Origin: Haplodiscus bocki
Lineage: Eukaryota
Assembly (NCBI GenBank): GCA_965655095.1
Contig: OZ296658.1
Span: 61,690,001-61,754,000, forward strand
Reading direction: 5' to 3'
Length of the DNA stretch: 64,000 nucleotides
Under the pieces are notes generated by a model, which ran no database searches, had not been told where the DNA came from, and saw nothing but the letters and a program-made list of their open reading frames with translations. Within the stretch, counting starts at the first letter, position 1. The number at the start of each line of letters is the position of its first letter. The position numbers and the translations under genes are program-made. Below are positions 27,631-54,602 of this stretch, in pieces.

Positions 27631-28395
27631 AATAATATAATATATTGAGGGTATGAGACTAAACCTCGCCTCGATCACTTTACTCTCATCTCCGGCAATT
27701 TACCTGCTCGTTCGTTCGCCCTCCTCACTCACCGGCTCGCTCGCTTACAACTCACATCGCTTCTCGCCTCGAGTTTTGTTCAACCCTACGGGCCACACCT
27801 TTTGGTCGCTCGGCTCGTGAGATGCTCGGCTAATGTCTCGCACAAAAAATAATATCTACGTATAGCATACCTTCATTTGGTGATGTATACATAAACGAAT
27901 AGTTTCTCATTTACGTAAACATAGAATTAACAAAAAGATTGCATTTGCACTTTTACATTGTAAGCGAGACTGAAAAACTCACCACTACCCAGTATGTCAA
28001 CATAACACAAATTATACATGCTGGCTTTGTTGACAAAACATTCCATGCGAAATTAAACAAGTTTTTCTCTTCTTATTTCGTCTCCTGTGCCTTAGTGGAT
28101 ATACCATTGGCGATGTTAAGGCATGGCCGAAGTTTCTGGGGTCCACTTCTTCTAATGTCTCCCAGTCTTTGTTATATCTTACATGCCATAGAGGATAATC
28201 TTAAACGCACAGTTCTTGAAATATTGATCCCTGCTGTAGAAATTTACACTGGAACGGACTCCCGATGGTCTTTGAGTTTACTGTGGGTATGTTAATGCAC
28301 ATGCCTATGGGTTTTGTATTTAATTCATACAGTTGGAGGTTGTTGAACTTTATTGAAATCACTAGCCTATACACAAATTAGTCTACTTGAAAGTT
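27631..28395 (+). repeat. Left terminal inverted repeat (~765 bp)
   Basis: aataatataatatattgagggtatgagactaaacctcg...acttgaaagtt is the reverse complement of 53871-54602 (roughly 75-85% identity by manual comparison, one ~35-bp indel near 28236-28270). Mirrored ORFs 27939..28295(+) and 53990..54313(-) are homologous. Confidence 0.92.
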
Positions 28396-28583
28396 GGAGT
28401 TTATTGCATCGGTGGAAAGCCGTTAAACTGTGGAATTCATTCCCAAGCTTTTCTTTCAAAAACATACTTTCATAACATCTTTTTTCACCAAACGGAGAAA
28501 GTCCATGGAATACTATTGTGACAATATTCGTAAAATTTTATCGTAAACGAGATTTTGCAATTGTTGAAAACTACATCGTTTAA

Positions 28584-29123
28584 ATGACCTACTACTGTAA
28601 ATTATGTGATGAAACTATGAAATCTAGATCAAAATATAAACAGTTTAAGTCTATAACTCTTAGTTGGTTTGGGGATTCTATTAAGAGGAGTTATTTTACT
28701 CTAAATCCTAATTTTGAAGGAACTGATAAAATATTTAGAAAAAATGTCAATAGCTATAATATAAAATATGAAGAATATCAGGTTCAATCTTTTTTAAATT
28801 TAATAAATCTTACAAATCTTGTAAGGTATAATAAGTTCAATCCAAAATTTGATATGCATTAATCTTTTATATTTTCTAAAAAATTTATGTTGTCTAGAAT
28901 TAATCAAGATCGACTTCTTTTTTCTACTATATTTGAAATGCGCATTACTTTTACTAATACTATTAGAGATATGACATATGATTACTATCTTAAACAACCA
29001 AAACTGATGTGTGAAATAAAATCAAATGAGATGATAGCCAGAAATCCTAATCTAATAAATTTTTTAAATAGAAATACAACCCATCTATTGATTGCAAAAT
29101 ACTCTCGTATTCCCTACTGTTGA
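28584..29123 (+). pseudogene. Polinton accessory protein with N-terminal CxxC (degenerate C2H2-type) zinc finger
   Basis: MTYYCKLCDETMKSRSKYKQFKSIT...; ORFs 28584..28862 and 28887..29123 are in the same frame, separated by one TAA. Confidence 0.55.
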
Positions 29124-29179
29124 TAAGCAGAAAAGTGAGGTCTTTTATAAACCGTTTCAAATATTTTTATCCAAAAAAA

Positions 29180-29322
29180 ACGGATAGTGGTAATAGTGAT
29201 GTTTTCTATTTTGTGAAAATGATGGTGAATATAGAATATATTGTGATGTTTGTGATAAATTATCTTTAGAAAGATTTTATGAAATGCATCTGAAACCAAA
29301 ATCTCACACGAATAATTTCTAA
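29180..29322 (+). pseudogene. Small C2H2 (matrin/U1-like) zinc-finger protein remnant
   Basis: Manual translation from 29212: CENDGEYRIYCDVCDKLSLERFYEMHLKPKSHTNNF* (C-x2-C-x11-H-x5-H). Confidence 0.55.
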
Positions 29323-52900: not shown

Positions 52901-53230
52901 TTTGATTATCGATAGATGATTTTGATATTATTTCAGAACATAAAAACATCCAAAGCTATACCGATGTAAAAAGAAACTTGGATAGAAAAGAAAACTTTGA
53001 AATGATATTTGGTAATGAATTAATTACAAAACAAGCTTTGAGTTGGAAAAAAAAGATCTGATATAGGAGTTATAATTCCAAGAAAAGAAATTGTGTTACT
53101 TGTACAAAAAATTTGACATGTAAAGATTGCGAAAAAATAATTAACTGAAAAAAATATATTCTTTCAATCTCAACGAATGGAAAAGAAACCTCCTAATCAT
53201 TTTGGTCACATGCTTCAATAGTTTAAACAG
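49945..53230 (+). pseudogene. Protein-primed family B DNA polymerase (pPolB)
   Basis: ExoI YDI(K)T (~50928), ExoII AHNGSGF (~51185), ExoIII DYVENDV (~51490), FVRQKIKRGR, motif A DF(E)ATSL*PSA (~51998-52030), motif B KL*KNSLYG (~52443), MPLSLGAFVL, motif C YYG(H)TDSL (~52742). Many stops and frameshifts; start position approximate. Confidence 0.93.
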
Positions 53231-53279
53231 GGTTTGAATGAGATCTCAGATGAATTTTTTCAAGCTTTTCTGTAGTAAT

Positions 53280-53871
53280 AAAAGAACAGTGTTAAAATTG
53301 AAGCTCTATTAACTGTTGCTAAAGAATATGAGTTTGATAACCCAACATGTTATGATATATTCGGTTTTTTTTCTTGATAGTGTTGTTAAAGACTGTAGAG
53401 ATATTTAATTTCGATCACTTGAATAGGGATGTTTATATGATTTTCGTTTTACATGTTTTTAAGAAAAATATAGAAGTTAATTTAAGAATTACTTTTGAAC
53501 ATATGAGTTATATTTTTCAATTCTATGATTTGAATGAAAAAAATGAAACTGCTCGACAAAATGATTTTATATTTAATCAAATAGATAAAGTAACAATAAA
53601 AATTGATTCAAATTTCTTTCAAACGAACATATGTTAATACTTAATTTTTCCAATACTAATAATGCATAGACAATTCTTTAGATTAGTATCACAAAATCGA
53701 GAAAAGTTAAGAAATTTTCGTAGTGATAACACACCATTCTATGGTGCATGTCAAAAATGGCGTTTAGACAATCAGTCACTCCAAAAAAACTATGAAAAAT
53801 TGTACGTAATTTCAAAATGTAATAAAGAAGGGAAAAAAATGATGAAGATTAATACTAGTATAGAAACCTAA
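53280..53871 (+). pseudogene. Terminal accessory ORF, apparent paralogue of the 28584-29123 gene
   Basis: FNQIDKVTIKIDSNFFQTNIC*YLIFPILIMHRQFFRLVSQN aligns without gaps to FSTIFEMRITFTNTIRDMTYDYYLKQPKLMCEIKSNEMIARN. Confidence 0.45.
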
Positions 53872-54602
53872 ACTTTCAAGTTAGGCCTATTAGTGTATGA
53901 GCTGGCGATTTCAATGAAGTTCAACAACCTCCAACCATAGGGAAAAAACAAAACCAATAGGCATGTGCATTGACATACGTATAATAATCTCAAAACAGCA
54001 GGGACCATCTTTTTAAGAACTGTGCATTTGGTGATTCTCCTCCTATGGCATGTAAGATATAACAAAGAGTGGGAGACGTATGAAGAAGTGAACCCCAAAC
54101 ACTTCGGCCATGCCTTAATTTCGTCCCTGCTATTTCCACTGAGCCACAGCAGATGGAATAAGAAAAGAAAAACTTGTTTAAATATACATGGAATGTTTTG
54201 TCAACAAAGGTAGCATGTACACTTTGTGTAATGTCGACATAGTTGGTAGTAGTGAGTTTTTCAGTCTCGCTTACAATGTAAAAGTGCACGGGCAATCTTT
54301 TTGTTAATTCCATATTTACGTAAATGTGAAATTATACGTTTATGTATGCATCACCAAAAAAAGTATGCTTTACGTAGATAAGTTTTATTATGGGAGGCGT
54401 TAGTCGAGCAACCCACTAGCAGAGCGGCTAAAAAGTGAGGCCCGTAGGGTCGAACAATAATATAGGCGAGAGGCGTTGTGAGCTGTAAACGAAGGAGCCG
54501 GTGAGAGAACAAGTCGAACGAGAGGGCGGGTATATTGTCGGAGATGAGAGTAAAGTGAGCGAAGCGAGGTTTAGTCTCATATCCTCAACATACTATATTA
54601 TT
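53871..54602 (-). repeat. Right terminal inverted repeat (~732 bp)
   Basis: aactttcaagttaggcc...cgaggtttagtctcatatcctcaacatactatattatt is the reverse complement of the left TIR. Confidence 0.92.

Follow-up and report, generated by a model that had tools for sequence, protein, structure and literature searches.

Introduction

Among the described relatives of the element studied here are the vertebrate Mavericks, for which a layout with all genes on the same strand is known in Xenopus and whose ends are reported as (AG)3 and (AGT)2 (PMC8097293). Virions have yet to be seen for any animal Maverick (10.64898/2026.06.19.733378). The present family bears on the expression of animal Polintons and on their possible dependence on a helper virus, as known for virophages in protists. 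We analyzed a stretch of 64,000 nucleotides (the window) from the 1.5-Gb genome of Haplodiscus bocki, at positions 61690001-61754000 of contig C11 (OZ296658.1), in which positions 27631-54602 hold a decayed, AT-rich Polinton/Maverick. Like other Mavericks/Polintons (adintoviruses; Polintoviricetes), the element and its sister copies combine a protein-primed DNA polymerase (pPolB), an rve integrase, an A32 ATPase, a double-jelly-roll capsid, a cysteine protease, terminal inverted repeats (TIRs), a 6-bp target duplication (in the sisters) and a length of 15-19 kb. They differ in that their genes start with TAAAT, in the presence, in many sisters, of rpo18, which encodes a poxvirus RNA polymerase subunit, in their ~22 genes, including many small unassigned ones, and in a capsid that is far from named entries. 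The AATAAT tips of one polymerase class, seen in the window copy and at 19 further loci, also depart from the ends reported for vertebrate Mavericks; 24 sisters end in AGTAGT. The end motif is a reported trait and no class criterion.

Taken alone, the window copy is an ordinary fossil, and the interest sits in its family, namely in the poxvirus-type initiators, rpo18 and a lock between polymerase type and element tip. The full virion module and the one-strand layout, to which a preliminary description of this DNA had pointed, are not what is new, both being already known for Mavericks (PMC8097293). In the open-access literature (supplements, Repbase and the 2006-2007 descriptions fall outside this scope), we found no report of an animal Polinton with poxvirus initiators, rpo18 or AATAAT ends, nor are these traits reported in the accessible text of 10.64898/2026.06.19.733378, PMC11161782 and PMC5803895. 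Given the late initiator of poxviruses at its gene starts and the poxvirus RNA polymerase subunit in many sisters, the family is probably an integrating Polinton satellite that would rely for its transcription on the RNA polymerase of a pox-like virus infecting the same cell.

Several elements that live with larger viruses invite comparison. The provirophage Mavirus inserts itself into its host's genome, from which a large virus can reactivate it (10.1101/068312); it shares an rve integrase and a pPolB with the window family and is the best fold match in PDB of our low-confidence capsid model, but it has a protist host and a giant-virus helper, its capsid is only 13% identical, and the capsid of the window family belongs to PF21738, which is of Polinton type. 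Entomopoxvirus-associated Polinton-like viruses, small capsid-encoding elements thought to parasitise the poxvirus, turn over their replication genes and ends as an 'end module' (PMC11296320). These were sequenced from occlusion bodies, whereas the window family is chromosomal and high-copy and has an rve integrase, poxvirus initiators and a poxvirus polymerase subunit; the words 'promoter' and 'RNA polymerase' are absent from the main text of PMC11296320. Polintons of Trichomonas have spread an egovirus-derived KilA, from a pox-related virus, to hundreds of copies (10.1101/2024.03.23.586382), whereas the gene captured by the window family encodes a core subunit for transcription, and it occurs in an animal, accompanied by matching promoter signals. 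With virophage-like satellites the family shares promoter signals of the helper's type and, in 14 of 41 copies that do not include the window's, a gene of the helper's lineage, rpo18.

Genes of the family start with a poxvirus-type signal

Across 16 genes in 30 younger copies, TAAAT was found at the start codon in 315 of 350 starts, in the form of TAAATG (255), TAAATATG (36) or TAAATAATG (24). TAAATG is the late start signal of poxviruses (PMC3061580; PMC4542343), and TAAA has been described as their initiator (PMC12917281). As controls, TAAAT occurred at 195 of 5418 antisense ATGs (3.6%), at none of 19 open reading frames (ORFs), some of which lack a true start, in a canonical Polinton that lies within another locus, and at none of three histone genes (H2A, H2B, H3). 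All seven starts of the major capsid protein (MCP) gene taken from two other metagenomes read TAAATG, and the window copy retains intact or one-letter-decayed signals at several genes.

The TAA could double as the stop codon of the preceding gene, yet this was the case for an upstream ORF of at least 40 codons in only 45 of the 255 TAAATG starts, and a mere stop-start overlap was therefore rejected. MCP genes start with TAAATG in 28 of 28 cases, none of them coupled to an upstream stop, including after gaps of 200 bases, and intergenic gaps of this length leave the T at -3 almost unchanged. A further motif, CATTTCAA, lies ~25 bases upstream of the endonuclease gene (11/13), the type B polymerase gene (4/6) and rpo18 (5/11), and upstream of no virion gene, a distribution suggesting that it likely marks a second promoter class.

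Many copies carry a poxvirus RNA polymerase subunit

The 14 copies mentioned above contain a 144-aa gene that matches Pox_RNA_pol (PF03293) at 9e-20, and whose profile retrieved vaccinia rpo18 from PDB (3e-18) and nothing else up to an E of 10. The genome holds at least 150 rpo18 matches (150 of 150 scored, from 560 candidates), which are 54-100% alike and mostly open, and all 20 rpo18 loci that were fetched regardless of capsids lie inside elements of the family. The median dN/dS of rpo18 was 0.26 (42 of 45 pairs), compared to 0.14 for both capsid and integrase; judged by these ratios, rpo18 is shown to be under purifying selection in many sisters.

The exclusive match to vaccinia bears on the identity of the helper. 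The family could instead be a satellite that depends on a different large DNA virus of the cytoplasm with TAAA-type initiators, asfa-like or from elsewhere in the Nucleocytoviricota and not a poxvirus proper. This would be in keeping with the likely penton, which resembles Nucleocytoviricota proteins, but we consider it very unlikely given that the rpo18 profile singles out the vaccinia subunit in PDB.

The usual view of animal Mavericks is that they are nuclear, and an element that integrates must reach the nucleus, which together raise the alternative of an autonomous nuclear Polinton read by host RNA polymerase II. TAAATG would then be the element's own compact initiator, or a translation context in AT-rich DNA, and rpo18 a repurposed passenger from a past poxvirus co-infection. 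The stop-start overlaps among the TAAATG starts, the lack of rpo18 in 27 of 41 copies and the lack of helper genes in profile searches of the genome (which had no working control) would all agree with such an element. It is nevertheless hard to reconcile with a T at -3 that persists behind 200-base gaps, with a canonical Polinton and histone genes that sit in the same nucleus and are devoid of TAAAT starts, and with purifying selection on an Rpb7-class subunit, a class with no known role apart from its polymerase. On balance we regard the nuclear alternative as unlikely, though it is the main rival.

Two polymerases are locked to two kinds of tip

The family has two protein-primed polymerases that can barely be aligned with each other, type B, which is that of the window copy, and type A, which contains an endonuclease-VII insert. 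Tip and polymerase could both be called in 44 of 50 loci (three had no callable tip and three no polymerase), and the type B polymerase was accompanied by AATAAT tips in 20 of 20 loci (two of them decayed and visible on one side only), the type A polymerase by AGTAGT tips in 24 of 24. Two loci had a tip of the other kind outside the target-duplication pair, and one mirrored flank has an AGT run 1.5 kb further out; in these cases the inner tip pair was counted.

Polymerase type changed 12 times on a DNA tree of the capsid gene (38 copies), compared to 11.9 times with shuffled labels, and the counts were 11 against 12.1 on the integrase tree and 12 against 11.9 on the ATPase tree, showing that polymerase type has mixed freely relative to capsid, ATPase and integrase genes. 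The tips themselves aligned in 177 of 336 same-type pairs and in none of 330 mixed pairs. We infer that exchange in the stretch between gene and tip, with no mismatch of the two ever seen, fits origin specificity.

Exchange of polymerases has been reported for nematode Polintons, with pPolB1 and pPolB2 (PMC10748475), and for Alpha and Beta adintoviruses (PMC8502044). The resemblance lies in two very distant polymerases being swapped among elements with similar capsids. In the present family, by contrast, swaps recur throughout the tree and a given polymerase always goes with one tip sequence, a tie that is not reported in the accessible text of either paper.

The polymerase gene ends 384-1600 bases from the right tip, and it could be argued that the lock is plain linkage in a family that is by now a mere transposon and makes no particles, the more so as the six core genes are all open in only 4 of 30 capsid-picked copies. 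We find this improbable: 29 of 330 mixed pairs, involving 20 of 37 copies, have in common inner repeat segments from the stretch that separates polymerase and tip, whereas the tips are never shared across types. The capsid dN/dS of 0.14 also speaks against this alternative.

The repeats of the two types were also found to differ in their inner features. AGTAGT-type repeats hold an internal inverted copy of the tip (in L084 from ~tip+70, and in L062, L074, L086 and L054), which could form a terminal hairpin, and AATAAT-type repeats hold repeated CTCGCTTATATTATTG motifs.

A pox-like helper as the probable source of transcription

A number of observations weigh against a satellite of a pox-like helper, or limit what the tips can say in its favor. 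The called start of type A polymerase genes has TAAAT in only 2 of 18 cases, and the signal was present in 3 of 15 broken ORFs of a second AT-rich Maverick group of the same genome. The CATTTCAA motif corresponds to no documented poxvirus element that we found, and coding strands show only a mild shortage of TTTTTNT, the early-stop signal (250 occurrences, compared to 299 after shuffling, with 274-329 over 30 shuffles). As 27 of 41 copies, the window copy among them, are without rpo18, this gene is an accessory one. No helper virus was found: profiles of the poxvirus D13, poly(A) polymerase, Rap94 and VLTF3 had no match in the genome, in a search of low power and with no working control whose blanks do not show absence. 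Finally, linkage adds to the polymerase-tip lock, since only 0.4-1.6 kb separate the polymerase and the right tip, and the copies are related, making the counts ones of non-independent events.

With these points in mind, the life cycle of such a satellite can be sketched. Family copies would be silent in the germ line until the enzymes of an infecting pox-like virus transcribed them. The element's own polymerase would then copy the linear genome from matching tips; protein-primed systems need a three-base terminal repeat for sliding-back initiation, and the repeats of the tips may serve this step. The element's ATPase, capsid and protease would make particles, its integrase would reinsert it, and the rpo18 protein would become part of the helper polymerase or alter its behavior. 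Recombination would take place among copies that replicate together, with only matches of polymerase and tip surviving. Transcription by a helper, self-replication, packaging and reintegration would resemble the cycle of Mavirus with its giant virus.

More tentatively, the family may be seen as an animal provirophage, that is, a germ-line family of hundreds of copies that is read by the polymerase of a poxvirus of the host and whose own subunit redirects that polymerase, comprising two origin-specific replicons (with AAT and AGT tips) and a single, freely recombining capsid pool; it could act as an inherited defence against that virus. The family points to an undescribed poxvirus of the host, and the provirophage reading, if true, predicts that this poxvirus exists. 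Three handles for tests are at hand, namely a promoter motif that a poxvirus transcription system could read, the binding of the captured subunit, and the two-by-two specificity of polymerases and origins.

The family in the genome

Using the capsid fragment of the window copy with its stops read as X, we retrieved 77 proteins of the family PF21738, the best of which was 100% identical to a gene of this very assembly, and the database matches are therefore not independent of the host. The close relatives are unnamed, and the suggestion that this is a poorly described lineage is upheld as far as these searches reach. At least 98 near-full capsid matches were found in the genome (98 of 98 scored, among 17925 candidates), and loci were fetched by repeat match (9), by capsid match (30) and as those nearest to the capsid DNA of the window copy (10), the last being only ~72% alike to it.

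Both tips were visible in 31 loci, of which 22 had a perfect 6-bp target duplication, five had one with a single mismatch and four, including the window, had mirrored flanks. The TIRs of sisters are up to 99.7% alike, and the family is recently active and recombining. Searches of the IMG/VR viral contigs, made with a capsid fragment and with alignments of capsid and rpo18, confirmed no relative, and a search of sequencing runs listed no RNA run as a holder.

At the four loci with mirrored flanks (window 27001-27630; L100/L101; L007/L008; L010-L013), the six bases by the tip form a perfect palindrome in two and nearly one in the other two, hinting at insertion into palindromes or at fold-back repair. 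One AGTAGT-tipped element of the family houses the GC-richer canonical Polinton, which has a third class of polymerase (L014-L017, G000:C3:116252500-116292400). The second AT-rich Maverick group (L003/L004, L020) has a distant capsid, yet its polymerase is of type B and its inner repeat segment is that of the window copy. We also observed a tandemly repeated capsid gene region with a period of ~1.6-1.7 kb (G000:C7:64933845-64938282; L106/L107) and internal tandem duplications in L001/L002. The histone genes form an array at G000:C4:15.58-16.31 Mb and on C37, with a unit of ~4.6 kb and at least 150 copies, in keeping with an animal genome.

Extent, ends and age of the window copy

The element in the window is almost certainly a dead Polinton copy. 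It spans 26972 bases, or 16753 without a tandem duplicate, in agreement with the ~16.7 kb given in the preliminary description, and both of its tips, at 27631 and 54602, read AATAATAT going inward. Repeat alignment and tip reading placed the left TIR at 27631-28395 (+ strand) and the right TIR at 53871-54602 (- strand), each with an AATAAT tip and 84% identical over 729 aligned bases; the outer ~270 bases of the left repeat are specific to the polymerase type, and its inner part is common to copies of the other type. Because many sisters have TIRs that are 93-99.7% alike, this copy is an old insertion.

No 6-bp target-site duplication was found at the window copy, where the left flank (27001-27630, - strand) repeats, in inverted orientation, the satellite-like sequence that flanks the element on the right; the two are 75-79% alike, with one 130-base indel, and match in register from the tip. 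The simplest explanation of these mirrored 630 bases, we infer, is that the right end was later copied onto the left junction.

A block of ~10.2 kb, 28763-39074, is duplicated in tandem at 39070-49288 (+ strand), the two being 98% identical over 9447 bases plus 94% over 791, and 94-100% alike by 500-base block. The junction cuts a 277-aa gene and restarts inside a zinc-finger gene. It was found in short-read contigs, with one error-free contig of the run X1, which may be the assembly's own sample, crossing it with more than 130 bases per side; a pure assembly artefact was thereby ruled out and the duplication exists as DNA. Both halves share the same broken frames, which places the duplication, in relative terms, much later than the insertion.

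Gene content of the window copy

The window copy was annotated through its natural sister copies, whose open genes were mapped onto it by tblastn. Remnants were left by 19 of 27 sister test genes, every one on the + strand, and the order of the recognized genes agreed throughout with that described previously. All of its large genes are interrupted by stops or frameshifts, no ORF of 150 codons is left, and none of the six core genes is open, here or in the ten nearest relatives. The preliminary description of a complete dead Polinton with a virion module was thereby confirmed, with TIRs, ATPase, MCP, protease, endonuclease, integrase and pPolB recovered. The one-strand layout is in part a trait of this copy, since in younger copies the left end also has small ORFs that run on the other strand.

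The window's own fragments gave only sub-threshold Pfam matches. The sister genes do match Pox_A32 (PF04665, 4e-12), the jelly-roll family DJR-like_dom (PF21738, 3e-14), rve (2e-12) and DNA_pol_B_2 (PF03175, 2e-15).

From left to right, the element begins with a broken zinc-finger gene at 28584-29120 (34% identity, E 2e-24; weak zf-C2H2), which retains its TAAATG start, and the remnant of a small zinc-finger gene (62 aa in sisters) at 29185-29330. In 29 of 30 younger copies (L028-L087), the zinc-finger genes and the ATPase are separated by a conserved gene of 65 aa whose transmembrane stretch is rich in cysteine; it was not detected in the window copy. The A32-like packaging ATPase, broken by stops and a frameshift, occupies 29567-30279, and it is followed by a broken conserved gene of ~290 aa with no assigned function (30295-31155).

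A broken gene at 31165-31950 likely encodes the minor capsid protein (penton), a label taken from position and size. Its model (pLDDT 31) was too poor for a fold search, it had no PDB match, HHalign gave no significant result against the like-placed gene of a canonical element, and its Atlas neighbors are unnamed viral proteins. The remnant of a small basic gene of 51 aa, likely a core protein, lies at 31962-32090, ahead of the broken double-jelly-roll MCP gene (32110-33390), for which a low-confidence model (pLDDT 48) matched the capsids of mavirus and iridovirus in PDB (E 5e-5). The broken gene for an adenain-like cysteine protease (33392-33800) has lost the position of the catalytic cysteine; the proteases of sisters show the order His-Asp-Gln-Cys and match CE-clan proteases in PDB weakly (E 0.005-0.8). 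The likely fibre gene (445 aa in sisters), also broken, spans 33801-35108 and gave a weak tail-fibre match (E 0.11) and no significant match in PDB. For penton and fibre alike, the earlier labels fit in position and size, and structural confirmation of them failed.

Five small conserved genes (80, 72, 204, 52 and 142 aa in sisters) fill 35110-36885. The 204-aa gene has a long hydrophobic hairpin and is likely membrane-active, and it may be gasdermin-like, a lead that comes from PMC8502044. When proteins of the accessory ORFs were compared with Pfam (44) and PHROGs (17), the only matches were to endonuclease VII and polymerase, besides weak zinc-ribbon ones. The next gene, broken at 36918-37545 and previously called HNH, proved to be of the endonuclease VII type (sister match 2e-11). 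It is followed by the broken rve integrase (37525-38362), whose catalytic glutamate position is lost, and then, at 38379-39074, by a zinc-ribbon gene (172 aa in sisters) together with the truncated start of the 277-aa gene.

This 277-aa zinc-ribbon gene lies, broken, at 49091-49870, and the remnant of the type B pPolB lies at 49935-53220, 34-53% identical to the open sister gene that gave the DNA_pol_B_2 match. Comparison with sister genes also bore out the altered catalytic positions that had been described in the polymerase, the protease (Cys) and the integrase (Glu). An unassigned broken ORF (53300-53870, + strand) adjoins the right TIR, and its DNA is 69-73% alike in three other copies. 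Outside the element, the GC content rises to as much as 45% at 60400-64000, where a minus-strand frame of 221 codons (62243-62908), with no Pfam match, is probably part of another repeat.

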